Positions 2,112 to 27,030 of a stretch of 32,000 nucleotides of DNA are shown here, one piece after another. Source of the DNA: Candidatus Saccharimonadota bacterium. Lineage in GTDB: Bacteria > Patescibacteriota > Saccharimonadia > Saccharimonadales > UBA4665. The position numbers and the translations under genes are program-made. Position 1 is the stretch's first letter, and every line of letters starts with the position of its first letter. The DNA is taken from assembly GCA_016699935.1 (NCBI GenBank), contig CP064992.1:720001-752000 (forward strand), given 5' to 3'. The notes beneath the pieces were generated by a model. It did no database searches and had not been told where the DNA came from. It saw only the letters and a program-made list of their open reading frames with translations.

Positions 2112-3132
2112 AGTCTGCTAGTTTTTCTATAAGATCGTCTATTTGACCGCTCAGAGCACCGGGGATGTTGCTACGGCTGTAGCCGATCCGGTGGTCAGTT
2201 ATGCGGTCTTGCGGGAAATTGTAGGTGCGAATTTTTTCAGAGCGGTCGCCGCTGCCGATGAGCTTTTTCCGAGCATCACTGAGTTGCTTGGTTTCTTCAT
2301 CAATCTTCAGCTGGAGCAGGCGTGATCGCAAGACTCCGAGCGCCTTCGCTTTATTTTTTATCTGTGATTTTTCGTCCTGATTTGCAACGACGAGTCCGGT
2401 TGGAAGGTGAGTGATACGTACGGCTGAGTCGGTGGTGTTTACGCTCTGGCCACCGTGGCCGCCAGCGCGAAAAACGTCTATGCGTAGATCGGCTGGGTTT
2501 ATTTCTATGTCTGTCTCCTCGGCTTCTGGTAGTACTGCAACTGTGACGGTAGAGGTATGTATGCGCCCCTGACTTTCGGTAGTAGGTACGCGCTGGACGC
2601 GGTGGACACCGGCTTCAAACTTAAGGTGCTTGTACAGGTCGGTTCCGCGCATGGCAAAAATAATCTCCTTAAACCCACCGACTTCACTTGGACTCTCACT
2701 GACCAACTCTGATTTGAAGCCCTTTATTTCACCCCATCTGATGTACATGCGATACAGTTCTGCAGCAAACAATGAGGCTTCGTCGCCACCAGCTCCGGCC
2801 CGTATTTCGACTATTACATCTTTTTCGTCATTCGGATCTTTCGGAGTCAACGCTTCGGCTAGTTTGTAGTTTGTAGTTTGTAGTTTGTAGTTTAAGGAAT
2901 CAAGCTCAGACTTGGCGTCATCAGCGAGCTCGGGTTCTTGTAGCAATTCCTCGGTATTGCCGATCTGCTCTTGGAGGTCTGAAACGTTTTCAAATAAGGC
3001 AATTATTTCCTCTAGCTTTGCTTGGCGTTTGGCAAGCTTAGGATACGATGGATCGTTAAAAATCGCGGGGTCTGAAAGCTTTTGCTGGATATCCCCCAGT
3101 TCAATACGTAGGTTTTGTTCTTTTTGGTCCAT
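2080..3132 (-). CDS. prfA: Peptide chain release factor 1
   Basis: Intact 350-aa ORF with the RF1 P-x-T tripeptide context [14 protein letters not shown] and the GGQ motif [19 protein letters not shown]. Confidence 0.95.
2861..2893 (-). repeat. Tandem heptamer array (AGTTTGT)x4.7 on the + strand, equal to (ACAAACT)n in the prfA sense strand, lying in frame inside prfA
   Basis: Direct reading gives agtttgt agtttgt agtttgt agtttgt agttt. It is translated as [14 protein letters not shown]. Confidence 0.9.
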
Positions 3133-3140
3133 AACAGTAG

Positions 3141-3146
3141 TGTATA
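3141..3146 (-). promoter_or_regulatory. Putative -10 box (TATACA) 8 nt upstream of the prfA ATG; predicted leaderless or near-leaderless start
   Basis: The minus strand reads cc TATACA ctactgtt ATG. No Shine-Dalgarno sequence lies between them. Confidence 0.4.
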
Positions 3147-3150
3147 GGTT

Positions 3151-3525
3151 TTAGTGATTAGTTTGTAGTGGCTTACCTAGTGTGTAAATGATTTTGGTGA
3201 GCATTTTTTCAATTTCGGTAATTAAAACAAGTGCATTATTGCAATCTATATCCGGGTAACGCCTAGTAACGATAAGTTATTGTGCTTCTGCCTCAGCGGC
3301 GGAACCGAGTGCTATACGTGTAAAATTACGAAAATCAGATCGAGTTCCACGCTTACTGCCCTCGGCAATGTTTGAAGGAATAGAAATAGCAGAACGTCTT
3401 AGTTGATCGCTTAATACAAAACGCTCATCGACTGGTAATGCATGAACAATATCGTATGCGCAGTCGACAAAATCAATAGCCTTTTGCCAAACCACTAAGT
3501 CTCGAAACGACTGGATGTCGCTCAT
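3151..3525 (-). pseudogene. Four-helix-bundle protein (23S rRNA intervening-sequence protein / Avd-like family) with an in-frame TAA at codon 83
   Basis: Translation is MSDIQSFRDLVVWQKAIDF...QLRRSAISIPSNIAEGSKRGTRSDFRNFTRIALGSAAEAEAQ*LIVTRRYPDIDCNNALVLITEIEKMLTKIIYTL...* This shows the family hallmarks VWQK, SIPSNIAEG and GSxxExExQ. The TAA at 3277-3279 sits where the family usually has Leu (TTA), and the frame continues to a stop at 3151-3153. Confidence 0.8.
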
Positions 3526-3581
3526 CGTACTCTCTTTCTCGCGCACCCTAAAAACTATCAACTACAAACTTAAAGAAAAGG

Positions 3582-3913
3582 CTACTCGGTAGCTTTTTCT
3601 TTTTCAGCTTTTTTCTCGGCTCGGGCACTGGTTTTTTTGGCAGCGGCCATGCGAGCTTCTTTGGCTTTGGCAGCGGCTTCGGCACGAGCTTTAAACTTAT
3701 CGACGCGGCCTTCTATATCGAGGACGCGCTCTTCACCGGTGAAGAATGGGTGGCTACTACCGGTAATGTGCACCTTCACTAGCGGATATTCCACCCCTTC
3801 AAAGAGATAGTTTCGTCTGTCGCGACTGTGCTGCGCGTCAGATATGTATGGTTGTTGTTCAGGTCTTGAAATACGACCAACCGATAGTTTTTCGGATGTA
3901 GATCCTTTTTCAT
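3582..3913 (-). CDS. rpmE2: 50S ribosomal protein L31, type B (no Cys zinc knuckle), with a Lys/Ala-rich C-terminal tail; one frame break at A-run 3801-3803
   Basis: Reconstructed as [37 protein letters not shown]|[37 protein letters not shown]. There are no cysteines. The track ORF 3582..3794 is only the C-terminal part. Confidence 0.8.
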
Positions 3914-4016
3914 TAGATTTGATTCCTTATGCTCAGAAAATATTGTGTAGTATGCGTGGCATCCGGTTAGCAGGCGAGCGTCCCTGCAGTCGGCCTATCC
4001 CAAGCAATTACCCAGC

Positions 4017-4046
4017 ATTATACCACCTCTGTTACGAAAAACGCAA
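4017..4046 (-). promoter_or_regulatory. Putative rpmE2 promoter: extended -10 TGGTATAAT (4017-4025) with a weak -35 TTGCGT (4041-4046), giving a leader of about 95 nt
   Basis: The reverse complement of 4017-4025 reads TGGTATAAT. The distance to the ATG at 3913 is about 100 nt. Confidence 0.5.
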
Positions 4047-4109
4047 CAGCTTGCTTTTTCTCTTTTAGGAGTATGCTTATGCTATAACCTAAAAACAAAA
4101 ACAATTATT

Positions 4110-5981
4110 ATGCCCGAACAAGCAACTCATTCTCCAGGCACTTTGCAACAACCACCATCAGGTGTATCTGCATTAGGTGTGGACGAATTTGCTCCGGTTG
4201 ATCCTACCTTGGTCGCTGAATTTGCGGCCGGGAATGAGTTTGTGCGGGCAGAGCAGGCGCCTACACACCATCCTGCCGAAGTAGCTGCTTGGCGAGATAT
4301 GCATATAACACCAGGGGATCGCCTGGCTGACCTGGAAGAGTTAGAGGCCGTGAAGCCGGGGAGTACAGTAAAACTACCGCCAGACGTTGCATCTATGGCG
4401 GCCGGGATCATACATGATGCAAGAGGGCTTATTCAGATTGCGGAGGTAGTGCAACCAACTGGCGTCTCTGGGCACGATCCAGTCGCACCAAATAAAGGAC
4501 CAAAGGGTGGAAATAAAATACGCACCAACTTCACTCGCGAACCACTAGCATTAGCAGGTGAATTTAGTACTTTTCAGCCAAAAAATGGTTTTGAAAAAAC
4601 ACTAGCTACAACTGTCGAAAGAAATCGGCCACAAATAGAAAGAGCGATAGAGCTTCTACCATATGAACCGACTCGAGAGGTCATTGAATCAGTAGCTGGC
4701 TACTATAATGATCATGACATACTTCTGCGTACAGTTACTGGATACTCCGCCGGTTATTCGACGAGTCCAGTGGACGGGGAGAAGATTATCAGTCATCCAA
4801 TTCTTGCAAAAGCAATGACCGATTTTTGTTCATTTGGTCAACAAGGTAGAACGGCAGAAGCAGATGAATTTGCTAAGGATATTCTAGACTCTCTGTATGA
4901 TGAATGCGCAATTGGCGCCCAGACATTACCTGATGAATTGATCCGGTTAAAGGCTGGTATAATCGAAAAAACATACCAGTCTTTAGGTTTCACCGTAGAG
5001 CCAGGCTCCGTCGAGAGAAGAATTATAGACACAAGAACAGAAGCGTTGGGCGAAGTCAGACATGCCGGGCAGCCACTGTTCCACAACACGCCGCACATTC
5101 GAGAAATAGTCCAAGGTGGGTTTGGGATAATGGGAAGGACTGCTCAAACCGAAAATGTTGGACATACATATGCTAACACGGGTGGTTATGAGAGGACGGG
5201 ACCAGCACATGCTAATGTGCCGCACTTTTCTGAGATGTACGACCCCACGTCCTATAGGCGCCCAATGGGCCCTAGGTCTAAGAATGAAAGGAAAGATGAC
5301 TTTGTTGGCGGCTGCGTTGTAATACCACTCGCGGATGTTATTAGCGAGGCACCGTTCGGACGCAATATTCGTTATGGCGTGCTAAGTGTAAAGCCGGGTG
5401 AAGTTATTGATGCAGCCAATAAAACAGATTCCATTGTGTATGATGGCGGAAATAATATGGGCGCAACAGATAGACCCTGCGCACATTTATCATTTGATCG
5501 AGTATTCTTCGCCGGCGACGGAAATAATGGAGAAGGAGCTGTCCCGGCACACAACTACACACTCGGTGCTGCAATAGTTCATCCTTCAAGACGCGGAACA
5601 ACAGGTGATACAGCGGGTATCATCATTACTGCAGATTATGATGTTTCCCCAGCTTATTCGAGAGGCCCTGATGGGGAATTGGTGGAAGATCGGAGTGGCC
5701 CAAATTTTGGTAGTGGCTATGGATTTCCAAGATTTGTTCGTATAGAAACTCCTGATGTAAAAACCGCTGACTTTCGTGCAAGTAGCGTGAGGGCTGCCCC
5801 AAAAAAGCTCGCTGAACTTTCAAGGCCAACCATCGAACAAGTTGCAAAAGAATCCATCGAAAACCCACTATATGATGGAAAATATGTTGTTCCACTCAGA
5901 GGTGCAATTATCTCATTTACCCATGAAGGCACCTTACACGGGAAGAATGACGCTACTCCATTGCAAAGACGCTATCTTTAA
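4110..5981 (+). CDS. Hypothetical protein, 623 aa, with no domain I can assign
   Basis: Single uninterrupted 1872-nt ORF. The leader is A-rich with no SD. I see no signal peptide or TM segment. The N-terminal ~130 aa are Pro/Ala/Glu-rich and the C-terminal half is Gly/Asp/Asn-rich. Confidence 0.7.
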   Translation: MPEQATHSPGTLQQPPSGVSALGVDEFAPVDPTLVAEFAAGNEFVRAEQAPTHHPAEVAAWRDMHITPGDRLADLEELEAVKPGSTVKLPPDVASMAAGIIHDARGLIQIAEVVQPTGVSGHDPVAPNKGPKGGNKIRTNFTREPLALAGEFSTFQPKNGFEKTLATTVERNRPQIERAIELLPYEPTREVIESVAGYYNDHDILLRTVTGYSAGYSTSPVDGEKIISHPILAKAMTDFCSFGQQGRTAEADEFAKDILDSLYDECAIGAQTLPDELIRLKAGIIEKTYQSLGFTVEPGSVERRIIDTRTEALGEVRHAGQPLFHNTPHIREIVQGGFGIMGRTAQTENVGHTYANTGGYERTGPAHANVPHFSEMYDPTSYRRPMGPRSKNERKDDFVGGCVVIPLADVISEAPFGRNIRYGVLSVKPGEVIDAANKTDSIVYDGGNNMGATDRPCAHLSFDRVFFAGDGNNGEGAVPAHNYTLGAAIVHPSRRGTTGDTAGIIITADYDVSPAYSRGPDGELVEDRSGPNFGSGYGFPRFVRIETPDVKTADFRASSVRAAPKKLAELSRPTIEQVAKESIENPLYDGKYVVPLRGAIISFTHEGTLHGKNDATPLQRRYL

Positions 5982-6381
5982 AATGGGGTGGAATGCCAAT
6001 GACGCATCTCACATACGTTACGCAGGTATGCTTCCTTAAAGACATATGAAAGCCTTGGCAACCTTGTGTATTAATAGCATTACAAATATGAATGAAGCAC
6101 GGCTTGGCTCACGCTGAGTTTTCACTTGGCTGCAGGATTTATATATTAAGACAACAGGCGCGTTCTGATGGTCTCGCGATACACATGCGGTAGAAAGTAA
6201 TATTCATCAAACCGTGGCTAATAACAGCAAAAACAACATTACAAAAATTCAAAGTTGCTTGAGTAATCTACTAACCTGTTAGGATGTAAGGGCAATTAAC
6301 TAAGCAGGTGCGGGTGTTGATCCTCCTAAGTGTTTCTATGTAAGGACATTTTGGGCCTCTCGACCGGTGTAAAAGGATTGG

Positions 6382-6454
6382 GGTTAGTAGATAGAAGGTG
6401 ATAGGTAGTAGATAGGGTTATCCCAACTACCAACTACCAACTACCAACTACTCC
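6382..6454. repeat. Back-to-back inverted heptamer arrays: degenerate (TAGWAGR)x5 at 6382-6417, then (CCAACTA)x4 at 6423-6450
   Basis: Direct reading gives ggttagtagatagaaggtgataggtagtagataggg tta tc ccaacta ccaacta ccaacta ccaacta ctcc. The arms are about 70-85 percent complementary. Confidence 0.8.
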
Positions 6455-6478
6455 TTTCGTAAAGAAAGGATTTGCCAG

Positions 6479-7203
6479 ATGGCAACAGACGTAGATATCA
6501 AAAAATTACTAGAGGCAGGGGCGCATTTTGGTCACAAAACCGAACGGTGGCACCCAAAAATGGCACAGTACATCCACAGCAAGCGCGGTGGCAGCCACAT
6601 CATTGACCTCACGAAGACTGTTGTGAAGCTCGAAGAAGCACTTAGCGTTGTGCAAGAGATGGCTAGCAAGAACAAACAAGTACTGTTTGTCGGCACCAAG
6701 AAACAAGCGCAAGACATCGTTAAAAACCTCGCTGAGGCAACAGGGCAGCCATTTGTGACGGAACGTTGGCTCGGCGGTATGCTTACTAACTGGAATACAA
6801 TTGGGGCTCAAATAAAGCATCTCGTTGACTTAGAAACCAAAATGGCGAGTGGTGAGCTAGCAAACAAGTTTAATAAACTAGAAGTACAGCGTTTCCAAGA
6901 AGAAATCGACAGCATGAACGTGCTGTATGGTGGCATAAAGGAATTAAATGCTCGGCCAGGTGTGGTTGTCGTTTTCGATGTTGTTCACGACCAAAATGCA
7001 GTAAAAGAAGCACTGAAGCTCAAACTACCAATTGTGGGTGTGTGTGACACAAATAGTAACCCGACAAATATTACGTACCCAATCCCATGCAACGACGACG
7101 CCATAAAGGCACTGCAGTTGCTGGCTGACTACTTCAGACGGCCGTAGAAGCTGGCAAGGCCAAAAGCAAAGTCGAGAAACCAGTCGATAAAGAAGACAAG
7201 TAA
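6479..7203 (+). CDS. rpsB: 30S ribosomal protein S2; probable frame break near 7125-7140 (the called ORF stops at 7147)
   Basis: Diagnostic N-terminus LLEAGAHFGHKTERWHPKM, with an AAAGGA SD 8 nt upstream. The -1 frame continues as ...AVEAGKAKSKVEKPVDKEDK* to the TAA at 7201-7203, resembling the usual S2 ADAVxEGK tail. Confidence 0.9.
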
Positions 7204-7262
7204 TTTAACAGATAAACAGGTAGCAGATAACAGAAATTGAGCAGGTGGCAGGTAGCAGACAT
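7204..7262. repeat. Degenerate CAG-containing tract with a ~7-nt period in the rpsB-tsf spacer
   Basis: CAG recurs at 7209, 7217, 7224, 7231, 7242, 7249 and 7256. The clearest units are gcaggtg gcaggta gcagaca. Confidence 0.4.
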
Positions 7263-7328
7263 TTGCGACCTGAAACATGCAAAATTTCTGCCAAATGTCG
7301 TCTGCTTCTGGTAAATGGAGAAACGAAT

Positions 7329-7922
7329 ATGGCAATTACAATTGAAGATATAAAGACTGCGTGAGCTTACCGGTGTCGGTATGACCGATGCCAAAAAGCG
7401 CTTGAAGCGAGCGACGGCGATTTTGACGCTGCGCTCAAAGAGATGCGCAAAAAGGCCTCACCAAGGCCGAAAAACGCGGTGAACGTGAGGCTCGTCAGGG
7501 AATTGTAGGTACCTACAACCACGACGGTCGCATAGGAGTCATCGTCGAAGTCAATTGCGAAACCGACTTTGTCGCACGGAACGAAATTTTCAGGGTCTCG
7601 TCAAAGACATTGCTATGCACATTGCGGCAAGTAATCCGGCGTATGTCGGTAGTGAAGAACATTTCGGCCGAAGCTCGCGACGCTAAAAAGCAAGAACTGC
7701 TTGCAAGTGACGCTCTGAAGGGCAAGCCAGCAGACATGGCCGAGAAAATCGTTGAAGGCCAGCTGGGCAAATATTTTGCCGAAGCTTTGTTTGCTAGACC
7801 AGCCATTCATTAAAAATCACTATGACCAAACCGTAGCTGATTACGTGAATGATCACAATGCTCGCCTCGGCGAAAACATCGTCGTCCGCCGCTTTAACCG
7901 CATCGCCCTCGGCGAGAAATAA
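7329..7922 (+). pseudogene. tsf: Elongation factor Ts (short form, about 198 aa), broken by about 6 frameshifts as assembled
   Basis: Reconstructed as [107 protein letters not shown]...ISAEARDAKKQELLASDALKGKPADMAEKIVEGQLGKYFAE.CLLDQPFIKN...GENIVVRRFNRIALGEK*. GGAGAA SD. It lies directly downstream of rpsB. Confidence 0.85.
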
Positions 7923-7937
7923 AACAGGACGTAGTTA

Positions 7938-7966
7938 TTGACTTTAATACACCTTTATGGTAGTAT
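7938..7966 (+). promoter_or_regulatory. Near-consensus sigma70-type promoter: TTGACT, 17-nt spacer, TAGTAT, with a TGn extension
   Basis: -35 ttgact at 7938-7943, a 17-nt spacer, then tgg-tagtat at 7958-7966. It sits about 40 nt upstream of the ATG at 8008. Confidence 0.6.
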
Positions 7967-8007
7967 GCTGGTATTAAGAATACATAAAAATAGATTGTTG
8001 ATTACCT

Positions 8008-8567: not shown

Positions 8568-8659
8568 TAAAAGTCAATCAATACAACTATAGTTAGTTGA
8601 ATGTCTACTTTCATACGTGATGTAAGTTATACTGATAGTACTAGAGTAAAGGAGACGCT

Positions 8660-9219
8660 ATGAATCCACAGCAGGTAGTTGAAGAAGCGAAAAGAAGTTT
8701 ACTGGTGCGGTCGAGCACTATCATGAAGCAGCTGAAGAGTTTGCGGACAGGGCGGGCAAGTGCTGCTATGCTCGACGGGGTAGTGGTGGAAGCCTACGGC
8801 ACACCCATGCCGCTAAACCAGGTGGCTAACGTTAGTGCCCCAGAGGCTCAATTGCTGCAGATTACGCCGTTTGAAAGCAACCTGCAAAAGATTGCGAGTG
8901 CCATTCGTGATAACGAGCCTGGGTATGAACCCCAGCGATGATGGTCATGTGGTACGCGTGCCTATCCCAGCACTCACTGAGGAGCGCCGCCGCAGGAAAT
9001 TGTTAAACAACGGCGGCAAACAAGAAGACGCCATGATTGCTGTGCGCAATATCCGCCATGAAGCAATGGACGCCATAGACAAAGCCAAAAAGACAAAGAA
9101 ATCGGTGAGGATGACGCGAAGCGCCTCAGTGGACAGGTTGAAGATGCTATGCAAAGGTTCGTACCGATATAGAGGCTGCCTCCAGAGCGAAGGAAAGTGA
9201 TATTCTGTCACTTTCTTAG
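8660..9219 (+). pseudogene. frr: Ribosome recycling factor, broken by about 5 frameshifts as assembled
   Basis: Matching segments are LKSLRTGRASAAMLDGVVVEAYGTPMPLNQVA, LGMNPSDDGHVVRVPIPALTEERRR and IAVRNIRHEAMDAIDKAKK.KEIGEDDAKRLSGQVEDAMQRF.TDIEAASRAKESDILSLS*. AAGGAG SD 5 nt upstream. Confidence 0.85.
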
Positions 9220-9396
9220 TGCAGAGGGCTGAGAGCAAAAACAAAAGTTTGTCCTAGGGAAATATTATGTCAAGTTTCAAGGATTTAAGACCTCTTGCAA
9301 AATAACTCCGTAGTCCATAACGCGCCCTTTTTGTCCCAAATAGAGCAATAACCTTCGCATCGTAACAGCGGTTACGATTTGTCGGCTATTGTCAAT

Positions 9397-9769
9397 TTGA
9401 AACAAAAATCAACACGTTCTGGATATACGGATTATTCTGCAAAGAGGTCTTTGAATGTGTGGCAGAAGGGTGTTGAGCTTAGTATTTTGGCGTACGGGCT
9501 CGCGCACAACTGCCAAAAATGAACAGTACCGGCTGGCACTACAGATTACTAGTGCCGCCACATCAATTCAACAGATATCGCTGAAGGTTACCGGCGCAAT
9601 AACAGAGCCAGTACCGTCACTTTGTAGTATTTCACTTGGTTCAGCTGCCGAATTTGAGACTCAATTGGTTATTATCAGAAAAAGGTCTTTCCTGAAATCG
9701 AAGTAAAGGCTAGCGATGGGTTTGGTAACAGAGATCCAGAAAATGCTGACAGTACTTGTCAGAAACTGA
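9397..9769 (+). pseudogene. Second four-helix-bundle (S23p/Avd-like) gene with at least 4 frameshifts and an unclear start; a possible decayed extra N-terminal fragment lies at 9267-9396
   Basis: Reconstructed as ...SLNVWQKGVELSILAYGLAHN.PKNEQYRLALQITSAATSI..DIAEGYRRNNR...ISLGSAAEFETQLVII...GLVTEIQKMLTVLVRN*. Separately, ATG 9267 opens MSSFKDL (a family-like N-terminus) but hits stops immediately. Confidence 0.65.
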
Positions 9770-9779
9770 GCTGACTCAG

Positions 9780-9804
9780 CCCTTTGCCCTTTGCCCTTTG
9801 CCCT
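9780..9804 (+). repeat. Tandem heptamer array (CCTTTGC)x3.5
   Basis: Direct reading gives c cctttgc cctttgc cctttgc cct, immediately followed by TATAAT at 9806-9811. Confidence 0.9.
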
Positions 9805-9811
9805 ATATAAT
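9783..9811 (+). promoter_or_regulatory. Putative rseP promoter built from the heptamer array: TTTGCC, 17-nt spacer, TATAAT, with the ATG 8 nt downstream (predicted leaderless)
   Basis: tttgcc at 9783-9788, tataat at 9806-9811, then agaatcca and the ATG at 9820. Confidence 0.5.
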
Positions 9812-9819
9812 AGAATCCA

Positions 9820-11885: not shown

Positions 11886-11920
11886 TTAACTCTTAACTCT
11901 TAACTCTTACCTCTTAAATC
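11886..11920 (+). repeat. Tandem heptamer array (TTAACTC)x3 plus variants TTACCTC and TTAAATC
   Basis: Direct reading. It is followed by CATAAT at 11922-11927. An AGGA SD sits 7 nt before the proS ATG. Confidence 0.9.
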
Positions 11921-11948
11921 TCATAATACATAACTCTAGGATTCCCCC

Positions 11949-15130: not shown

Positions 15131-15159
15131 TTGTGCTCTTGTGAGTCTTTCGGTACAAT
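15131..15159 (+). promoter_or_regulatory. Putative lysS promoter: TTGTGC, 17-nt spacer, TACAAT, with the ATG 10 nt downstream
   Basis: ttgtgc at 15131-15136, tacaat at 15154-15159, ATG at 15170, and no SD. Confidence 0.45.
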
Positions 15160-15169
15160 AGAATACGAT

Positions 15170-16741
15170 ATGCAGTGGTTAAATACGATTGTTGATGAGC
15201 TTATTGCTCGTGTGCCGGAAGGTGAGATTTTGCTGGAGTCTGGCGCGTCGCCTAGCGGGACGTATCATTTGGGGCATATGCGTGAGTTGTTGACGCCCGA
15301 TGCGGTGCTGCTGGAACTACGTCGCCGAGGTAGGCAGGCGCGTCACATTCACTTCGTCGATGACCTCGACGCCCTACGCAAAGTGCCGGTAAATATTCCT
15401 AGCGAGTACGAAAAGTACCTGGGCATGCCGCTGTGTGATATCCCGGCCGTAGATGGCAGCCAGCGCTCTTACGGTGACTATTTTCTAGATGGCTTCAAAC
15501 AGGCTGGGGAGCTACTGGGTATAGAAGTAGAATATTTGTACGCTCACGAAAAATATCGGGCAGGCTTTTTTGTGCCAGCTATAGAAAGAAGTTTAGAGCG
15601 TATACCACAAGCTCATGCTGCGTTAGAAGCAGTTTCGGGCCGTCAACTAGACGAACACTGGTCTCCGGTGCAAATCATGGAGCAGGGCAGGCTAAAAAAC
15701 CGTCAGTTTATTCGCCTTAACAAGTCAGATAAAACTATTGCGTACCAGTCTGCTGATGGTCAAGAACAAACTGTCGCGTATGATACCGGTCTAGTTAAGC
15801 TCGATTGGCGGCTCGACTGGCCTGGGCGCTGGTGGTTGCTCTGTGTCACAGCTGAACCATTTGGCCGCGATCATGCCAGTGCTGGCGGTTCATACGAAAC
15901 AGGAGCGCGCATGATGCAAGATGTCTACAGGCTCCAGCGCCATACCCCATTCCCTATGACTTTATAAATATGGCTGGTGATACGAAGAAAATGAGTGCTA
16001 GCAAAGGTACTGGTCTAGATGCAGTCGAAGGCGCTACCATTAGTATGCCGGCAGAAGTAGTGCGCTATTTTGTACTTGGTTCCGCCCCGAGCAAACGGCT
16101 GTATTTCGACCCTGTCGGAGGGTTGTAAGGCTGATGGATGAATATGCAGCGTTAGGCTGCCAAGCCAGATAAAACGCCCGAAGACGAGCAGCTACTGTAC
16201 ATTTGTACTCGCGGTAATAACCGACAAACGGTTAGCCGCGTACCTTTTAGCCAATATCTTGTGGCCTGCTACCAGAGCGAGTTTGCGTGATCCAGCTAAA
16301 ACTCTTGAGGTTATCAAGCGGACAGAACATGCCCAGGCAGCAGAGGAAGACCCCGAAATCATTATGCGCGAGTTGACTTTCATTGATGCGTGGTTAGAAT
16401 ATGCCGCCACCAGATGAAGTGAAATTCGCTTTGCGTGAACAGATAGAAAAAGTGAGTTTAGCGAAAATGAAGTGAAGCTATTGCTAACCTAGCGAAAGCG
16501 TTGCTGCTGCACCGGCCAATAGCTGAGGGGGACTATTTTCACCTAGCTCTCTATGCGCTCAAAGACGAGTTTGGCATGCGGCCAAAGATATTTTCTCGGC
16601 ACTATACCGCTTACTAATTGGTAAAACCAGTGGCCCCCGCGCCGGCTGGTTCCTCAGTATCCTCCCCGCGACTGGCTTATCTCTCGTCTAAAGCTGGAAA
16701 AAGTAAGAAACATTTACAAAAAGTTAAAGCGTTTGATATAA
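15170..16741 (+). pseudogene. lysS: Class I lysyl-tRNA synthetase (LysK type); intact to about 15930, then at least 5 frameshifts; 3' end uncertain (16691 or 16741)
   Basis: Class I features: SGASPSGTYHLGHMRE (HIGH-like), LDWRLDWPGRWW, EPFGRDHASAGGSYETG and KMSASKG (KMSKS). The tail reads ...ALYRLLIGKTSGPRAGWFLSILP. Confidence 0.8.
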
Positions 16742-16742: not shown

Positions 16743-16749
16743 GCTTTAC

Positions 16750-17819: not shown

Positions 17820-17859
17820 AAATAAACCTCTCGTGGTTAAAACCACGAGAGGTTTATTT
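17820..17859. terminator. Bidirectional intrinsic terminator between convergent genes
   Basis: A perfect 19-bp inverted repeat, aaataaacctctcgtggtt / aaccacgagaggtttattt, separated by 2 nt. It is flanked by an A-run upstream and a T-rich run downstream, so it works on both strands. Confidence 0.8.
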
Positions 17860-17869
17860 GTTAAATGTG

Positions 17870-18410: not shown

Positions 18411-18518
18411 CTCAACCTCCTTAGTTATGCTGGTATTGTACAGCTATTAATCGCTCGTATCGAGTAAGATATATCACAATCAGTAAACATTATTTTGGAG
18501 CCAGCATATTATTCGAAG

Positions 18519-19720: not shown

Positions 19721-19728
19721 ACTAGTAT

Positions 19729-19793
19729 ATTATAACATAAAATCACTACTTGGTCACGTTATTCTATTTCAATGTAGGGTCTACTGGTATAAT
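19729..19793. promoter_or_regulatory. Divergent promoter pair: TATAAT (19729-19734, minus strand) 8 nt from the MidA-like ATG, and TGGTATAAT (19785-19793, plus strand) 7 nt from the HAD ATG
   Basis: Read directly on both strands. Neither gene has an SD sequence. Confidence 0.55.
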
Positions 19794-19800
19794 TTACCAT

Positions 19801-20429: not shown

Positions 20430-21772
20430 TCATTGGAAAACTTGTGCACGGTGGGCAGGGGCTCGGCACGTTACCCGATGGCCGGAAAGTGTTTGTATGG
20501 AATGCGCTGCCAGGTGAAACAGTACGGGTGCGTCTCATTAAGCAAAAACGCTCGTACGCCGAGGCGATAGCCGAGGCAATAGTAGTCGCCTCACCAGAAA
20601 GAATCGAGCCGCTTGAGGCAAACTATCTGGCGACAAGCCCGTGGCAGATGATGACGTTTGAGGCCGAAAACCGTTACAAAGCCGATATAGTCAAAGAGCT
20701 ATACACCCAGGCCAAACTAGATATTTCTCCTTTCATTGAAACTACTGTCTTAGAAAATGCAACCGGAAACGGCAAAATCACTTTGTCTCCCTCCGCGTTT
20801 GCATACCCACCTAGGGCTTCCCACTATAGGAATAAAATGGAGTATTCATTCTGGGGAGACGAAGACGGCCTGCACCTGGCGCTTCACCAGCGTGGCAGTC
20901 ACGGCAAACAAATAGTTTCGGGTAGCGCGCTGGCTTTGCCGGCGGTCGACGTGGCAGCCCGTGTGGTGCTAGCAGAACTGACGAGACTCAAGGTGAGGGC
21001 GGGCGACCTCAAAACGCTCGTTGTGCGTTGCGACCAGTATGGTGCTGCTGTCGCCGCGCTTTTTGTGAAACCAAGTAAATTCCCCAGATTAAAACTGCCA
21101 TCCCAGGCGAAACCATCATCCCAAAAGGACAGTTCTGTGAGTGAGGGTGGTGGCGGATTGAGGGGGCTGCGAGTGTATCATTCGAATCCGAAGTCACCGG
21201 CATCGGTTAGGACAAAACTGATATACGAGCTTGGTGATTGCGGGCTTGCAGATTCGCTACTCGGCAAAGTGTTCCACTACGATGTCGACAGCTTTTTTCA
21301 GGTGAATGTGCCGGTGTATGAGCAGGCGCTTGAGACTATTCGTACATACTGCCAGGGTGACCCAGTCGATATGTATGCTGGGGTAGGGACGATAGGACTG
21401 AGTGTGGCAAAAAAGCATGTGACGCTCGTAGAGTTGGATCCGGCAACTGCCGCTATGGCACGCCTCAATGCGTCAAGGACGGACCCTGACGCAAGGGTAG
21501 TTGAGGCATCGACCGAAAAGGCGCTCGAATACATTACTGCAGAGCAACCAGTTATTTTTGATCCTCCACGTGCTGGGTTGCATGCGTCAGTCGTCAAGCG
21601 TTGCTTAGAAGCAAAACCGCCGCAAATTATTTATCTAAGTTGCAATCCAGCCACCCAAGCGCGCGACTTGGCGCTGTTGCAGGCTGAGTACGCCGTAAAG
21701 CATTTCACTATTTTCAATTTTTTCCCACGTACCCCGCATATTGAGACCCTGGTAGTACTAGAATTCAGGTGA
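20417..21772 (+). CDS. TrmA/RumA-family class I SAM-dependent RNA (uracil-5) methyltransferase with an N-terminal TRAM-like domain
   Basis: Intact 451-aa ORF with the motifs FFQVN, DMYAGVGTIG, IFDPPRAGL and YLSCNPAT. Its start overlaps the HAD gene's stop. Confidence 0.8.
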   Translation: MDEVVIGKLVHGGQGLGTLPDGRKVFVWNALPGETVRVRLIKQKRSYAEAIAEAIVVASPERIEPLEANYLATSPWQMMTFEAENRYKADIVKELYTQAKLDISPFIETTVLENATGNGKITLSPSAFAYPPRASHYRNKMEYSFWGDEDGLHLALHQRGSHGKQIVSGSALALPAVDVAARVVLAELTRLKVRAGDLKTLVVRCDQYGAAVAALFVKPSKFPRLKLPSQAKPSSQKDSSVSEGGGGLRGLRVYHSNPKSPASVRTKLIYELGDCGLADSLLGKVFHYDVDSFFQVNVPVYEQALETIRTYCQGDPVDMYAGVGTIGLSVAKKHVTLVELDPATAAMARLNASRTDPDARVVEASTEKALEYITAEQPVIFDPPRAGLHASVVKRCLEAKPPQIIYLSCNPATQARDLALLQAEYAVKHFTIFNFFPRTPHIETLVVLEFR

Positions 21773-21780
21773 AATAAACG

Positions 21781-21808
21781 GGAACTCTTAACTCTGAACT
21801 CTTAACTC
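21781..21808 (+). repeat. Tandem heptamer array of the TTAACTC family (GGAACTC TTAACTC TGAACTC TTAACTC)
   Basis: Direct reading. It is followed by TG TATACT (21811-16), then gcctcc and the ATG at 21823. TTAACT at 21788-21793 lies exactly 17 nt upstream of the -10 box. Confidence 0.9.
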
Positions 21809-21822
21809 TGTATACTGCCTCC

Positions 21823-22612
21823 ATGAGTTATATGAGGGGGCGGTCACGGCCGTATGAGCCAGGGCAAACTGAGCCGTATAAAGTGAGTCGAAGCAAGATA
21901 GAGCTGTATATGCAGTGTCCACGCTGCTTCTGGCTCGATGTGCGGCACAAGATTACCCGGCCTAGCAGTCCGCCATTCAACATAAACAAAGCTATCGATG
22001 AGCTTTTCAAAAAAGAGTTCGATGTGTACCGCCAGAATGGCAAACCACACCCGCTTATGAAGCAATTTGGAGTCGATGCCGTTCCGTATACCCACAAAGA
22101 CCTCGATACGTGGCGGCATAACTTCACAGGGGTGACCACACTGCATGCGCCGACGAACCTACACGTATTCGGTGCCGTCGACGATGTGTGGGTAAACCCA
22201 GCGGGCGAGCTCATGGTGGTAGATTACAAGGCTACCGCAAAAGCGGAGCCGGTCAAAGCACTTGGCCCGGAGGGCGGTTGGCAAGACATGTACCGTCGCC
22301 AGATGGAGATTTACCAGTGGTTACTGCGCCAAAATGGGTTCTCGGTTAGCGACACAGGCTATTTTGTGTATGCCACGGGTAACCCCGGCAAAGATGCCTT
22401 CGATGGGATTGTCGAGTTTGAAACACACGTTTTCCTCACCACGGCACAAGCGACTGGGTAGAGCAAACATTGCTAGACATGAAACAGTGCATGGAAAGCG
22501 ATACAATGCCACCTGTCGGCACCGCAGCCATGGGCGGCACATGAATTTTTGCAGCTACGCTCGCTCTCGCACCGAGCTCACGCTTGCAGCCATCCAAAAC
22601 AAGAACTCTTAA
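21823..22612 (+). CDS. PD-(D/E)xK nuclease-family protein (Cas4/RecB-nuclease-like) with two frame breaks near 22455 and 22545
   Basis: Contains the N-terminal Cys pair YMQCPRCFW, the core GAVDDVWVNPAGELMVVDYKAT (D...D/E-x-K) and YRRQMEIYQWLL (QxxxY). After reconstruction the tail reads DWVEQTLLDMKQCMESDTMPPVGTAAMGG.C.FCSYARSR (CxxC). The stop lies inside the next heptamer array. Confidence 0.7.
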
Positions 22613-22643
22613 CTCTTAACTCTTAACTCTTAACTCTTAACTC
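22602..22643 (+). repeat. Tandem heptamer array: AGAACTC followed by (TTAACTC)x5
   Basis: Direct reading. It is followed by TG TATACT (22646-51), then actaatc and the ATG at 22659. TTAACT at 22623-22628 lies 17 nt upstream of the -10 box. Confidence 0.95.
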
Positions 22644-22658
22644 TGTATACTACTAATC

Positions 22659-23901
22659 ATGTTAGACATACAATTTATACGAGATAACGCTGAGCTGGTC
22701 GAGCGGAAGGCGCATGAAAAGGGCTACAATAACGTCGATGTGACGGCATTGCTTGCAACTGACGAAGCGCGGCGAGCGCAGTTAACGGCGGTCGAAGAGT
22801 TGCGGGCACAGCGCAATGCACTGACCGAATCGATGAAGGGTCAAAACCGACAGCAGAGCAGATAGAGCAGGGAAAGGCCCTAAAAGAAAAGATTGCCAAA
22901 ATAGAAAATGAGCTGAAAGTCACAGAGGAAAAATGGCAATCCCAGATGCAAATGGTGCCAAACCCAACGTTTGACGATGTGCCGCTAGGTGGCGAGGAAG
23001 ATAGTGTAGAGATTAAGCAAGTTGGCGCACAGAACAAGGGCGCCACAGACCACCTGGACTTCGCAGTCGCGCGCGACTGGGTTGATTTTGAGCGCGGAGC
23101 GAAGGTGGCTGGGGCGAAGTTCTACTACCTTAAGGGCGATCTCGCGTTGCTAGAAAACGCGATTACGCAGTTTGCACTCGATTTTGTACTCAAAAAGGCT
23201 TTACCTACATGACTGTGCCGCATATGGTGAATTCACGGGTGGCAATGGGGGCGGGTTTTTCTCCGCGCGGTGACGAAAGCGGCAATGAGTATTATGTCGA
23301 AGGCGAAGACTTAACGCTCATCGGCACCGCTGAAGCGCCACTGACTGGATACCATGCAGATGAAATTATCGGTGAAGATGCCTTGCCCTTGAAATATGTT
23401 GGTTACAGCCCATGCTACCGTCGCGAAGCAGGCACATACGGTAAGCACACGCGGGGCTATTCCGCGTACACCAATTCAATAAACTTGAGATGTATATTTT
23501 TGTGCACCAGAGCAGAGCCGAGACATGCACGAGTTTATCCTCGCGATCGAAGAAGAACTTTGGCAAGCGTTGGGCATACCGTATCATGTGGTTAATATTG
23601 CGTCGGGCGACCTGGGCGCGCCAGCGGCGAAGAAATATGATGTCGAGTACTGGTCGCCAGTAGATGAAAAGTACCGCGAGTTGACGAGCTGCAGCAACTG
23701 TACTGATTTTCAGGCACGCAATCTCAACATCCGTATTCGTCGTAAAGACGGCAAAGTTGAGGTGCTCCATACGTTAAATGGCACTGCTGTGTCGCTGGCT
23801 CGTTCACTTATCGCAGTCATTGAGCATTACCAACAGAACGTGGTACACTGAAGGTACCAGATGCATTGCGTCCATACATGGGCGGCAAAACTGAGCTATA
23901 A
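22659..23901 (+). pseudogene. serS: Seryl-tRNA synthetase, broken by about 5 frameshifts as assembled
   Basis: The fragments join as MLDIQFIRDNAELV..., ...VPLGGEEDSVEIKQVG, ...FYYLKGDLALLENAI..., TVPHMVN...LIGTAEAPLTGYH...[34 protein letters not shown]..., ...ASGDLGAPAAKKYDVEYW...ELTSCSNCTDFQARNLNIR...LNGTAVS and ...LKVPDALRPYMGGKTEL*. Confidence 0.9.
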
Positions 23902-23916
23902 ACTAAAAGGAGCTAT

Positions 23917-24272
23917 ATGATTCATACCGTCAGTGCGGAAGGTTTTGACCTGAGCCCAAAATTGCAGAAGTACGCCGCAGGCAAAATAAAAGATATCGAA
24001 AAATACATCCCGCGCAAGGCCCGCGAAGCTGCAGTACTCGCAGTCCATTTTAAAGAAAGTAAAAAGAGCCAGGAAAAAACCTGTACATTGGCGCTCGAGT
24101 TGCCGCACGGTACGCTAGCCTCTAAGAAACAACTACCCACATGTATGCTGCATTTGATATAGCAGTCGTTGAAATTCGCCGACAAATTGCTGATTACAAA
24201 GGTAAACATAGCACATATGGTTTACGTCATCGGCTGTTTCGCCGCGCAAAGCGTGAACAAGCAGTTGTCTGA
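23917..24272 (+). CDS. hpf: Ribosome hibernation promoting factor / RaiA family (short form); one frame break near 24123-24130
   Basis: Sequence MIHTVSAEGFDLSPKLQKYAAGKIKDIEKYIP... continues as ...ETTTHMYAAFDIAVVEIRRQIADYKGKH...* in the shifted frame. AAAGGAG SD. Confidence 0.75.
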
Positions 24273-24407
24273 AGTTTGTGTTACTTTCGCGTCAAAGTTT
24301 TTACCGAATTTGAAATATTTATGACATTTACTCTCGCATCCCCGAGGCAAACAGGGTACAATAGTTGGTGACTAATCTACAGGCTTTTAGGGAGGTGTAG
24401 CAAGCTT

Positions 24408-27007
24408 ATGAATAGAGTATTAAAACGTATCTTGGGTGACCCGCAAGCAAAGACCATTAAACGATTGCGTAAGCGCGTCAGGGTCATAAACGAACTTGCG
24501 CCCAAGTATGAAAAAATGACCGACAAACAGCTGCGCGAGCAAACAGACAAACTGCGAGCACGGCTCAAGAAAGAATCCCTGGATGGTATTTTACCCGATG
24601 CCTTCGCACTTGTGCGTGAGGCGGCGACGCGTACGCTCAAACAGCGTCACTACGATGTACAGCTTATCGGTGGTATGGTGCTCCACGAAGGTAATGTCAG
24701 TGAAATGAAAACTGGTGAAGGTAAGACGCTCGTTGCAACCGCACCAATGTTTTTGAATGCTCTTGGGGGCAAGGGTGCCCACCTCGTGACGGTGAACGAC
24801 TATCTTGCGCAGCGCGATGCCGGCTGGATGGGCCAGGTGTATCATTTCTTGGGCCTTTCGACCGCCGTTATTATGGCCGATCGATCATATCTGTACGACC
24901 CGAAATATGTGAACGAAGAACACGAAGACGAACGTTTTCGTCACCTGAGATCGTGCAGCCGTCAGGAAGCATACGCGGCAGATATAACCTATGGCACAAA
25001 CAATGAATTCGGCTTTGACTACCTACGCGACAACATGGTGCGCGAGACAGATCAGCTTCGTCAGCGCGAACTTAACTATGCTATCGTGGACGAAGTTGAC
25101 TCCATCCTTATAGACGAGGCGCGCACACCACTTATCATCAGTGCGCCGAGCGTTACCCCAGGGAATGCGTACGCACAGTTTGCAAAAACGGTGCTCCAGC
25201 TACTGCCAAGCACTATGAAGTCGACGAGAAGCGAAAAACGGTTGTGCTGAATGACTCTGGCGTGGACAAGATTGAAAAAGTGCTTGGGATTGAGAACTTA
25301 TACGGTAGTGATAATATTCGCACGCTGTACCACCTTGAGCAGGCGCTTCGGGCACAGACGCTCTTTAAACGAGACAAAGATTACGTGGTTACGAACGATG
25401 GAGAGATTGTCATCGTCGATGAATTTACTGGTCGCCTGCTTGCTGGACGTCGCTACAACGAAGGGCTACACCAGGCTATTGAGGCGAAAGAAGGTGTGGA
25501 AGTGCAGGAAGAGTCTATGACACTTGCAACCATTTCATTCCAGAATTACTTCCGTTTGTATGACAAGCTTTCCGGTATGACTGGCACGGCCTTAACAGAG
25601 AGCGAAGAATTCCATCAGATATACAAGCTTGATGTCGTGGAAATACCGGCTAACCGCCAAATAGTACGCAATGACCGCAGTGATCGCATCTACCGAAACG
25701 AATCGGCCAAGTTCAAGGCGATTGTTCGTGAGGTGAAAGAACTCTATCAAAAGGGTCAGCCGGTGCTCATCGGTACAGTTTCTATAGAAAAGAACGAAAA
25801 ACTTGGCGGTATGCTCACGAAGGCCGGGGTGCCGCATCAGGTACTGAACGCGAAGAATAATGAGCGCGAAGCGAAAATCGTCGCGAAAGCAGGTGAAAAA
25901 GGTGCGGTGACACTCGCGACAAACATTGCCGGCCGTGGAACAGACATTGTACTTGGTAAGGGAGTAAAGGAACTTGGCGGCCTGTTTGTAATAGGTAGTG
26001 AACGGCACGAATCACGGCGCATAGACAATCAGTTGCGTGGACGCGCTGGGCGTCAGGGCGATCCAGGGGCTACGCAATTCTACGTCAGTACCGAAGACGA
26101 CCTTATGCGCATATTTGGTGCAGAGCGAATTGGTCGAGTGCTTGACCGGCTCAAGGTTGATGAAGGTGTGCCTATCGAAAACCGTATGATTACCCGCAGT
26201 CTTGAAGCGGCACAAAAAAAGGTGGAAGGCTTTCACTTCGACCAGCGTAAAAATGTGGTCCAGTACGATGATGTGATGAACCGTCACCGTAAAGCTACCT
26301 ATGCGATGCGTAAGGAAGTATTGCGAGCAGAGGATATTAGCAAGCGAATAAAAGCGTATATAGAGGAAGAAATTAGTTTGCTCGCAGACTCACCATTGCG
26401 TTCGACAGAAGAATTTGAACCAGCAGTACAAGAACTATTACCTCTCGACGAAGCTGCGCTCGACCGTATTTTTTCTAAGACACAGGTTACTGTCAAACCG
26501 GTACTCATCGAGGAGGCGAAAGAGTTGTATGAAGGCCGTGAGAGTGCATTCACGTCCGAAATCATGCGAAAGGTCGAGCGTGATATTTACCTGCAAATCC
26601 TCGATAATCTTTGGATGCAACACCTCGAAAACATGGATCACTTGCGTGAAGGTATTGGTTGGATGAGCGTAGGACAGCGCGATCCACTGGTTGAATACCG
26701 TCGCCGCGGACAGATGATATTTGAACAAATGCAATACGCGCTTCGCCATGATGTCGTTCGTGCAATATTCCATGCAGAACCGATAGAAATGGACGAGTTG
26801 GATCGCCCGGTTGAAACTGAGCTGACACGTGCAGCACGTAGCTCTATTAGCAACGCTGGACAAATTTTGGACGATGAAAAACAGTTCGATGAAGAGGACT
26901 TTACTGGGGAGAAAAAACCATCCCAGGTGAAAGCGACATCCAAAGATCGTGCCAAAGCCAATAAACGTGAGCGTCAACGTAAGGCAAAAGCGAGGAAAAG
27001 GAAATAG
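24408..27007 (+). CDS. secA: Preprotein translocase ATPase SecA; one frame break near 25200
   Basis: Motifs [12 protein letters not shown] (Walker A), [18 protein letters not shown] and [10 protein letters not shown]. ORFs 24408..25250 and 25244..27007 join as ...[26 protein letters not shown]. The C-terminus is Lys/Arg-rich with no zinc-finger Cys motif. Confidence 0.95.
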
Positions 27008-27030
27008 GGCCTAAAGGGCAAAGGGCAAAG
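27007..27030 (+). repeat. Short heptamer array GGGCCTAAA GGGCAAA GGGCAAA G, the reverse complement of the CCTTTGC unit at 9780-9804
   Basis: Direct reading, immediately after the secA stop codon. Confidence 0.8.

Follow-up and report, generated by a model that had tools for sequence, protein, structure and literature searches.

A 32-kb segment of a Saccharibacteria (TM7) chromosome, which at its full length we refer to as the window, carries arrays of short direct repeats whose period is seven nucleotides. The arrays are genuine, with a specificity both for period 7 and for the lineage, and they sit at orthologous positions in related genomes with differing copy numbers and units. We consider it reasonably probable that they are heptanucleotide simple-sequence repeats (SSRs) generated by slippage, of the kind known as short tandemly repeated repetitive (STRR) sequences or as long SSRs, and that this lineage of Saccharibacteria is unusually rich in them.

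Arrays were detected with Tandem Repeats Finder run on the window, and the level expected by chance was taken from 300 first-order Markov (Markov-1) shuffles. The program returned eight period-7 rows, seven of which are solid arrays of 2.6-5.9 copies each, and six of these seven lie outside open reading frames (ORFs). (Labels such as L001, L017 and L081 denote the loci or contigs of the relatives with which the window was compared.) The eight rows, together with the degenerate stretch that contains the weakest of them, are:

2860-2893, minus strand: TAGTTTG x 4.9 (AAACTAC on the gene strand), 100% matches, inside prfA
6423-6451, plus strand: CCAACTA x 4.1, 100%, in the rpsB leader
7204-7262, plus strand: degenerate RRCAGRT stretch in the rpsB-tsf spacer, a weak repeat, conserved in L001 (compared: L001, L081, L064)
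7240-7258, plus strand: 2.7 copies, 83%, the weak row within 7204-7262
9779-9804, plus strand: GCCCTTT x 3.7, 100%, upstream of rseP
11886-11921, plus strand: TTAACTC x 5.1, 89%, upstream of proS
21783-21809, plus strand: AACTCTT/AACTCTG x 3.9, or a perfect 14-mer x 2.1, upstream of the nuclease gene
22604-22644, plus strand: AACTCTT x 5.9, 100%, upstream of serS
27013-27030, plus strand: AAAGGGC x 2.6, 100%, in the secA-M16 spacer

Exact period-7 arrays of at least 2.5 copies numbered six, as against a mean of 0.007 in the shuffles, and no exact array of period 8-15 with at least 2.5 copies was present in the window. When up to two mismatches per 14 comparisons were allowed, period 7 gave six tracts and periods 8-11 gave none. 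Moreover, exact heptamers of just 2-2.5 copies numbered zero in the window against 1.8 expected, and the excess therefore sits in expanded arrays rather than in seeds. The solid arrays fall into three unit families, A (AAACTAC, CCAACTA), B (TTAACTC) and C (CCCTTTG/GGGCAAA), and individual units recur: TTAACTC is found at three loci, CCCTTTG/GGGCAAA at two, and AAACTAC-type units in prfA, at the flanks of four-helix-bundle (4HB) genes and in the rpsB leader. No match was obtained in the window with Rfam at gathering thresholds or with the tRNA search program ARAGORN, and the arrays therefore do not belong to any known RNA.

An earlier reading of the window made from its letters alone (the sequence-only reading) had listed thirteen tracts in four families at gene boundaries. 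Its coordinates agree with those of Tandem Repeats Finder to within 1-6 nt, the placement at gene boundaries was borne out, and seven of its tracts are the solid arrays; about four others turned out not to be tandem arrays. In particular, 3151-3171 and 3549-3572 are degenerate inverted arms around the first 4HB gene, 6382-6417 is the degenerate inverted partner of the CCAACTA array, and the supposed degenerate tract at 9220-9260 is not periodic, only 9218-9233 counting, as the inverted partner of 9775-9790. Families A to C hold up as solid and the fourth, D, is weak. (An inverted pair at 8596-8610 is a small palindrome and nothing more.) The reading was also right that no CRISPR spacers, transposase or integrase lie nearby in the window; a CRISPR array is ruled out, as the 7-nt units run strictly head to tail without spacers.

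The loci of relatives were divided into a nearest clade (L081, L088 and L017; 21.9 kb), next relatives (115 kb) and other Saccharibacteria/Patescibacteria loci (1.86 Mb). The numbers of tracts per Mb were:

Window: period 7, 188; period 8, 0; period 9, 0
Nearest clade: period 7, 320; period 8, 46; period 9, 0
Next relatives: period 7, 35; period 8, 0; period 9, 0
Other loci: period 7, 13; period 8, 2; period 9, 4

The underlying tract counts were seven (period 7) and one (period 8) in the nearest clade, and 25, 3 and 8 (periods 7, 8 and 9) in the other loci. Periods 5 and 6 were flat across the groups and periods 8-11 were near zero. The enrichment of period 7 is thus lineage-specific, with roughly 190-320 tracts per Mb in the clade as against about 13 elsewhere; period 7 is mildly favoured everywhere, matching the published bias, and is boosted 15-25-fold in this clade. 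The observation of the sequence-only reading is confirmed, and its claim that such tracts pervade the genome finds support in the seven tracts within the 21.9 kb of the nearest clade.

Same-unit arrays were found at orthologous sites in the short-read assemblies L001, L017, L081-L087 and L088-L090. At the prfA site, CTACAAA x 4.3 is present in seven contigs of a relative with an 87% identical PrfA (the L081 type), and AAACTAA x 2.9 is present in L088, a relative with an 84% identical PrfA. Upstream of serS, L001 carries CTCTTAA x 3.6 as against the 5.9 copies of the window, and upstream of proS an orthologous TTAACTC array is found in L017.

The units themselves are not unique to the clade, since viral contigs carry (TTAACTC)3 and (AAACTAC)3; in a scan of these two units, made without a control heptamer, each was found in 16 viral contigs from very diverse contexts, giant-virus bins included. 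One site in related viral contigs has 4, 7 or 9 copies of TTAACTC. Some IMG/VR contigs with (TTAACTC)3 (L172, L175, L171, L177, L182 and L184; GC 0.50-0.57) carry other period-7 arrays as well, up to five in 9.5 kb, and in L178 and L179 the array terminates in TTAACTGAAA directly before a Shine-Dalgarno sequence and an ATG. Note also that L077, a Saccharibacteria-like contig mis-binned under a Gammaproteobacteria label, carries nine tandem copies of ACCAGCT directly behind a TATAAT-like box (6758-6821), and that L104 (3207-3235) and L105 have AAATATC x 4, apparently within an rsmE-like coding region.

The arrays abut hexamers that resemble -10 boxes, as had been proposed from the letters of the window. 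Past the end of four of the six intergenic arrays, at a distance of 0-1 nt, there is a hexamer with at least five of six matches to TATAAT; the probability of this under random placement is about 2e-7, or about 1e-5 if two identical junctions are counted once. The four sites are:

Array at 9779: TATAAT (9806-9811), 1 nt past the array and 8 nt from the rseP ATG (9820)
Array at 11886: CATAAT (11922-11927), 21 nt from the proS ATG (11949), with TAGGAT (11937-11942) 6 nt before the ATG
Array at 21783: TATACT (21811-21816), 6 nt from the nuclease ATG (21823)
Array at 22604: TATACT (22646-22651), 7 nt from the serS ATG (22659)

A scan for consensus promoters gave TTGCCC-16-TATAAT with 10/12 matches at rseP, TTAACT-16-CATAAT once (proS) and TTAACT-17-TATACT twice (nuclease and serS), such that at all four sites the -35-like hexamer is part of the repeat unit and is separated from the -10-like hexamer by a spacer of 16-17 nt. 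The proS array (11886-11940, plus strand) consists of three perfect and two degenerate TTAACTC units followed by a decayed tail. According to the table of gene starts, the start codons behind the promoter-proximal arrays have no canonical Shine-Dalgarno sequence; a -10-like hexamer likewise precedes the ATG of prfA, the M16 peptidase gene and lysS by 5-7 nt, and Shine-Dalgarno sequences are found instead at frr, hpf, secA and the SIMPL gene, among others. Because the -10-like hexamer lies 6-8 nt from the start codon, leaderless-type promoters are suggested, and we infer that some of these genes are transcribed as leaderless mRNAs, with the arrays filling the spacer, the -35 region and the DNA further upstream.

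The junction CTCTG-TATACT is common to the nuclease and serS promoters of the window, the serS promoter of L001 and the nuclease promoter of L091; the serS arrays of L001 and the window have an identical CTCTGTATACT junction, and the nuclease promoter of L091 has two units only, GGCTCTC GGCTCTG. It looks as if a heptamer next to the -10 box had been expanded. Moreover, two diverged units together form a 14-mer that is perfectly duplicated at 21782-21810. The stop codon (TAA) of the nuclease gene lies within the first unit of the array at 22604, in L001 as in the window. Arrays end 13-27 nt from the ATG in the window and 11 nt from it in L017, the TTAACTC arrays are all co-oriented with the downstream gene, and as RNA they are predicted to be unstructured (0 to -0.8 kcal/mol).

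A second setting is formed by hairpins. At three intergenic sites, in many Saccharibacteria, hairpin arms consist of short tandem repeats; the units are specific to each lineage and the arms are still complementary, so that arm complementarity is kept across species. Two of these hairpins in the window are:

6385-6416, plus strand: left arm of the rpsB-leader hairpin; degenerate and purine-rich, period 11 in Tandem Repeats Finder; pairs with the CCAACTA array
6423-6451, plus strand: right arm of the rpsB-leader hairpin, the CCAACTA array, 27 nt before the rpsB ATG (6479)
27013-27030, plus strand: left arm of the secA-M16 hairpin, the AAAGGGC array; own-arm duplex -25.8 kcal/mol, z -3.4
27058-27070, plus strand: right arm of the secA-M16 hairpin, degenerate GCCCTATGCTTTG, with a -10-like TATGCT (27063-27068) 7 nt before the M16 ATG (27076)

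In the rpsB leader (window 6340-6480; L081:3385-3500; L001:2560-2725; L064:3640-3761), the arms are a TAGTAGATAGG-type tract and (CCAACTA)4 in the window, (TAGTCGGA)4 and (CTTACTA)3 in L081, of TAGTTT/AAACTA type in L001, and TAGGGTT/ACCCTA in L064. Between secA and the M16 gene, the window has a GGGCAAA array and a degenerate partner, L091 a degenerate arm and (CCTATAA)4, L092 arms of AAACTAC type, and L134 a period-8 array and a partner. When the pairing of a species' own left and right arms was compared with that of shuffled arms, z scores of -3 to -5 were obtained in most species, and in a cross-species duplex matrix the lineages with different units paired best with their own arm (in L064, -33.9 versus -11.7 to -18.1 kcal/mol). 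Hairpin stability in the sense versus the antisense orientation stood at 7 to 3, both strands folding about equally; an RNA-level stem and a DNA-level stem are not separated by this comparison.

The rpsB-leader hairpin is a 70-80-nt insertion with two copies of AAAGGATT on its sides, and it is absent in L118, L031 and L074. The second AAAGGATT copy is part of a small conserved hairpin (TCCTTTC-GTAA-GAAAGGA), in which the Shine-Dalgarno sequence would be sequestered; competition of the first copy for this TCCTTT is conceivable, and a translational switch at rpsB may be the result. (Upstream there is a block, TTAAGCAGGT...GGG...ATCCTC, that is conserved across Saccharibacteria.)

Inverted arms also enclose the two 4HB genes of the window. 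That tracts flank both of these genes, as well as the nuclease gene, had been noted before and is correct. The elements of the two cassettes are:

3137-3170, minus strand: right arm of the 4HB1 cassette; period 7 in degenerate form, with ACTAC/ACTAA units; period 14 and 75% in Tandem Repeats Finder
3277-3525, minus strand: 4HB1 gene, TIGR02436 / PF05635 (NCBIfam E 1.3e-24), with its 3' end truncated in this assembly
3548-3572, minus strand: left arm of the 4HB1 cassette, GTTTGTAGTTGATAGTTTTTAG; its complementarity with the prfA array also reaches 87%
9218-9233, plus strand: left arm of the 4HB2 cassette, AGTGCAGAGGGCTGAG, 16 nt, 88% complementary to 9775-9790
9267-9706, plus strand: 4HB2 gene, TIGR02436 (E 8.6e-7), broken by a 165-nt hairpin element (9287-9451) and by frameshifts
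9779-9804, plus strand: right arm of the 4HB2 cassette, the GCCCTTT array

The arms of the first cassette (3146-3168 and 3548-3570) are 74% complementary over 23 nt with a perfect 10-nt core, and its right arm runs into a -10-like TACACT (3139-3144) upstream of the prfA ATG (3132). Every 4HB gene (PF05635/TIGR02436, Avd-like) that we saw is enclosed by inverted arms: two in the window (3137-3572 and 9218-9804), two in L081 (200-760 and 4060-4535), and one each in L088 (1880-2365), L077 (5150-5620) and, degraded, L064 (2345-2600). In the rpmE-prfA spacer, a cassette is present in the window, L081 and L088, is degraded in L064 and is missing from L042 and L052, which suggests gain and loss of 4HB cassettes at this site. 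Between frr and rseP, the second cassette is present in the window and in L081, where its arms use the period-8 unit TAGTCGGA of that genome's rpsB leader. (Note that arm pairing at 4HB genes was assessed from manually placed arms and the cross-species duplex matrix, an automated test of the flanks being unreliable owing to imprecise flanks and only six hits, and that a fold of the whole 4HB1 cassette region, with a z of -0.4, is dominated by the ORF.)

The 165-nt element within 4HB2 is a near-perfect hairpin (9287-9451; -65.5 kcal/mol) that splits the ORF between MSSFKDL and NVWQKG. The hpf-secA spacer of another Saccharibacteria contig, L149 (15304-15479), holds a relative whose termini are identical (AAGACCTCTTGCA...TGCAA..GGTCTT). 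No Rfam family was found for the element, and permissive E-values on 9150-9560 gave generic long-hairpin microRNA matches far below threshold; the element may be a miniature inverted-repeat-like element or a structured RNA. A diversity-generating retroelement is rejected, the Avd match reaching 21 bits against a cutoff of 80 and no reverse transcriptase accompanying it.

A third setting is within coding sequence. The prfA array encodes an 11-residue peptide that stands in place of a variable linker in domain 1. The array is no insertion: PrfA is equally long in 13 relatives, and the alignment is gap-free at the array. The unit is AAACTAC in the window and L081 and AAACTAA in L088, and since it is the same in two lineages and altered in a third, a substitution in the unit has spread across the units. 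In a loop of the L088 PrmC protein, an AAACTAC unit beside a CCCCTA repeat adds five residues and again encodes NYKLQTT.

We propose that a 7-nt segment is duplicated and is then expanded and homogenised by slippage of the replicating strands. For arrays that face each other, a probable further contribution comes from intrastrand template switching inside the hairpin, which could carry a change in one arm to the other. In a very compact genome, such arrays would persist only where they are harmless or fit an existing element. One niche of this type would be the DNA just upstream of a -10 box that lies 6-8 nt from a start codon, where the array would replace the spacer and the -35 region of a leaderless-type promoter; because growth takes place at the upstream end of the array, an increase in copies leaves the distance to the -10 box unchanged. 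Another would be the hairpin arms found between genes (in the rpsB leader, in the secA-M16 spacer and in the 4HB stems), with selection keeping the arms complementary, and variable protein linkers whose total length stays in frame (prfA in the window, prmC in L088) would be a third. As for the seven nucleotides, the one published idea, for which PMC4679880 and PMC4692102 are the sources, is that they correspond to the stretch of DNA in contact with the polymerase.

The sequence-only reading had named replication slippage, a nuclease or recombinase, and RNA-level paired stems as candidate mechanisms. Slippage has its hallmarks here in units that are 100% identical with decayed edges, in the 14-mer duplication, in the concerted change of the prfA unit, in copy numbers that differ between orthologous sites and in the 4, 7 and 9 TTAACTC copies that related viral contigs have at one site. 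The paired-stem candidate is likewise strengthened, in that inverted arms are complementary across species despite sequence change. Nothing points to a dedicated nuclease or recombinase acting on the arrays.

Several observations weigh against an origin by slippage as the full account. The same unit is present at several unlinked loci per genome, and slippage alone does not account for this recurrence; orthologous loci in other genomes use other units, and L064 has TAGGGTT/ACCCTA at three loci. Recurrence of this kind is a hint of spread from one locus to another or of selection acting on a motif. Seven contigs of the L081 type and three of the L088 type, near-identical and drawn from different samples, show identical copy numbers, and high mutability of the arrays is thus not demonstrated. 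That arrays pervade the whole genome is extrapolated from 32 kb and about 22 kb of close relatives. As to the hairpins, the own-arm z of the window is only about -1.3 at the rpsB leader and at the first 4HB cassette, and the z of whole-hairpin folds is modest (-1.5 to -2.4). As to the promoters, the -35-like hexamer of L017 would have a 15-nt spacer, and the putative promoters and leaderless starts are consensus matches only.

An explanation that we regard as unlikely is that the arrays are selected cis-elements, either tandem sites for a lineage-specific DNA- or RNA-binding protein or unstructured, G-poor leaders that recruit ribosomes, with slippage merely varying the number of copies. A ribosome-recruiting leader role has been proposed for the TAACTGA repeats of Beggiatoaceae (PMC4679880), and the layout seen here closely parallels the description given there. 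Identical units recur at several unlinked genes; TTAACTC arrays share one orientation, end 11-27 nt from the ATG and yield RNA that is predicted to be unstructured; the serS and proS arrays are kept in relatives whose ProS is 72% (L001) and 88% (L017) identical; and arrays occur only at 2.6 or more copies, with no 2-copy seeds. However, several unrelated units occupy equivalent positions, and the nuclease promoter (L001, L091) and the proS promoter (L001) have other units or no array. Furthermore, the downstream genes (proS, serS, rseP, the nuclease gene and the M16 peptidase gene) have no common theme, no candidate binding protein was found, and transcripts started from the -10 boxes, should these be genuine, would not include the arrays.

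Rather improbable, in our estimate, is that the hairpin tracts of families A and C are dispersed palindromic elements (REP/REPIN or miniature inverted-repeat elements) or the terminal repeats of mobile 4HB cassettes, in which case spread would explain the shared units. The rpsB-leader hairpin is specific to a subclade and its flanking AAAGGATT copies could be a target duplication, the 4HB cassettes are bracketed by inverted arms whereas the rpmE-prfA spacers of L042 and L052 are empty, and L081 uses TAGTCGGA both in the rpsB leader and at the second 4HB cassette. In addition, two arms in L064 share 20/24 nt (a small sample) and both family C arrays of the window share GACT beyond the repeat. 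Against this, the window hairpins share a core of only 5-10 nt and no long consensus, TTAACTC arrays have no inverted partner, and typically a perfect array in one arm faces a degenerate arm, a sign of recent local expansion; the 32 kb contain no transposase, integrase or REP-associated tyrosine transposase (RAYT), and the sample amounts to about six cassettes.

We think it similarly doubtful that the arrays are working parts of a compact intergenic grammar. Direct arrays would then build the upstream half of the promoters of leaderless genes, and inverted arrays would form hairpins that pair even out of register and act as terminators or as RNase III stems. These inverted arrays would also supply the terminal repeats of 4HB (Avd-like) cassettes that are mobile, resemble the intervening sequences of rRNA and spread each genome's preferred unit among loci.

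Phase variation, in which copy number would switch genes through promoter spacing or reading frame at contingency loci, is very improbable and we reject it. In Haemophilus influenzae, promoters with heptanucleotide repeats are reported to be phase-variable as a result of these repeats (PMC8262952, PMC2651432), and four of the arrays lie in promoter-like regions; however, the arrays extend upstream, away from the -10 box, such that the spacing from the nearest unit to the -10 box is not altered by copy number, the length of the prfA array is constant across species, the genes are housekeeping genes, copy numbers are low (3-6), and no length variants are found among near-identical contigs from several samples. 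That the arrays are assembly or polishing artefacts of an error-prone long-read genome is scarcely credible and is ruled out, for although there are at least 15 frameshifts in essential genes, short-read assemblies made independently carry same-unit arrays at the orthologous positions, perfect repeats would be eroded and not created by random indel errors, and the prfA array is in frame with a conserved peptide.

Turning to the window as a whole, ProS, PrfA, RpsB and other proteins are closest to those of Saccharibacteria genomes recovered from metagenomes, and QQS17920.1 (Candidatus Saccharibacteria bacterium) is 100% identical to the window PrfA. The gene content is of the reduced-genome type: htrA, prmC, prfA, rpmE, rpsB, tsf, frr, rseP, a CPBP protease gene, proS, class I lysS, genes for a PIN protein and a zincin, trmA, a PD-(D/E)XK nuclease gene, serS, hpf, secA, the M16 peptidase gene, prfB, ftsE, ftsX and the two 4HB genes. 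From the gene map, the intergenic fraction is about 11-13%. Compared with relatives, essential genes contain at least 15 frame breaks (four in serS, three in tsf, two in the nuclease gene, and others in secA, frr, lysS and rpmE). The frame-broken genes are:

22659-23898: serS
7263-7919: tsf
21823-22612: nuclease gene
24408-27007: secA
8660-9213: frr
15143-16699: lysS
3582-3913: rpmE

These breaks are most likely indel errors of a long-read assembly and not signs of pseudogenes, and they make any ORF-based annotation of the window unreliable. The nuclease gene had looked short and had been called an orphan because it is split by assembly frameshifts; its relatives in metagenomes number 303, and the synteny of the gene extends across Saccharibacteria. 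A 623-residue ORF at 4110-5981 has no Pfam or NCBIfam match and has a weak relative (24% identity) at the syntenic position of L001. After the zincin gene, 17820-17859 holds a perfect 19-nt palindrome (AAATAAACCTCTCGTGGTT / AACCACGAGAGGTTTATTT) that is probably a bidirectional terminator.

Several known systems resemble the arrays of the window. Mazel and colleagues reportedly described, in 1990, the heptanucleotide STRR repeats of the cyanobacteria Calothrix, Nostoc and Anabaena, which PMC4692102 cites as well. Like those, the window repeats are tandem 7-nt units with several families per genome, they are mostly intergenic and their abundance is lineage-specific. They differ in belonging to Saccharibacteria/Patescibacteria with a genome of about 1.2 Mb, in their units, in having 3-6 copies where some cyanobacterial arrays reach dozens, and in their tight linkage to -10-like boxes and hairpin arms.

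The TAACTGA repeats are found in marine Beggiatoaceae, some cyanobacteria and some Bacteroidetes (MacGregor 2015, PMC4679880). As with the arrays of the window, there are 2-6 copies per set, directly upstream of start codons, in one orientation and with no canonical Shine-Dalgarno sequence; copies occur occasionally within ORFs, and housekeeping genes, ribosomal protein genes included, are among those downstream (PMC4679880). Moreover, an AACT core is shared with TTAACTC, AAACTAC and CCAACTA. Membership of the TAACTGA family is nonetheless rejected, the unit being absent: two-unit matches with one mismatch allowed numbered zero in the window and zero in 2.07 Mb of loci. Unlike the TAACTGA repeats, the window uses several units, many of its tracts are hairpin arms, and its arrays are separated from the ATG by a -10-like hexamer, an arrangement suggestive of promoter DNA and not of a 5' leader.

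The intergenic heptamers GGGAATC of Xanthomonas and GGGGA(T/C)T of Nostoc form G-quadruplexes (Rehm et al. 2015, PMC4692102). Common to these and to the window are some inverted pairs with stem-loop potential and an occurrence in the same gene gaps of sister species with variable length and sequence, whereas the units of the window, with little G on their sense strand, are unable to form quadruplexes.

That some bacteria have an excess of heptanucleotide repeats was reported by Mrazek et al. in 2007, as summarised in PMC4679880 and PMC4692102, and the novelty implied by the sequence-only reading was therefore set too high. As far as the published summaries of prokaryotic long SSRs go, heptanucleotides are their most abundant class, and the window agrees with them in the excess of period 7 over neighbouring periods, in a mostly non-coding location, in a sporadic phylogenetic distribution and in the hypothesis of polymerase slippage. 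Our search of the literature found no paper that connects Saccharibacteria or Patescibacteria with such repeats. To our knowledge, no genome of the candidate phyla radiation or of Saccharibacteria is among the described cases of long SSRs.

Why the unit should be seven nucleotides has been an open question since 2007, and the genomes in which it has been addressed are all large ones (cyanobacteria, Xanthomonas, Burkholderia and Beggiatoaceae). A 1.2-Mb Saccharibacteria genome with minimal repair and regulatory machinery may carry about 200 arrays per Mb, and its sister lineages have 15-25 times fewer, which offers a small and tractable comparison of the genes for polymerases, repair and binding proteins. 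Leaderless genes with a -35 region that tolerates repeats, and 4HB cassettes in conserved stems, are suggested by the present data and are essentially uncharted in bacteria of the candidate phyla radiation. In practical terms, arrays can break short-read assemblies (the L082 contig ends inside such a repeat), and they could serve as strain markers.

Finally, REP/REPIN elements are species-specific imperfect intergenic palindromes, and some 23S rRNA intervening sequences hold a 4HB (PF05635) ORF inside a long stem. With these the window shares imperfect intergenic palindromes, a 4HB ORF within inverted arms, and arms that are species-specific yet complementary. Unlike the REPINs described in PMC3116915 and REP elements, the arms in the window consist of 7-8-nt tandem units with no long shared consensus, and no RAYT was seen in its 32 kb; unlike the 23S rRNA intervening sequences, the cassettes of the window, with their predicted stems, lie between protein genes. 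The arrays of the window share all of the testable defining features of heptanucleotide repeats, which are apparently undescribed in this phylum, and they add two local twists, namely their adjacency to -10 boxes and the repeat-built stems around 4HB cassettes.

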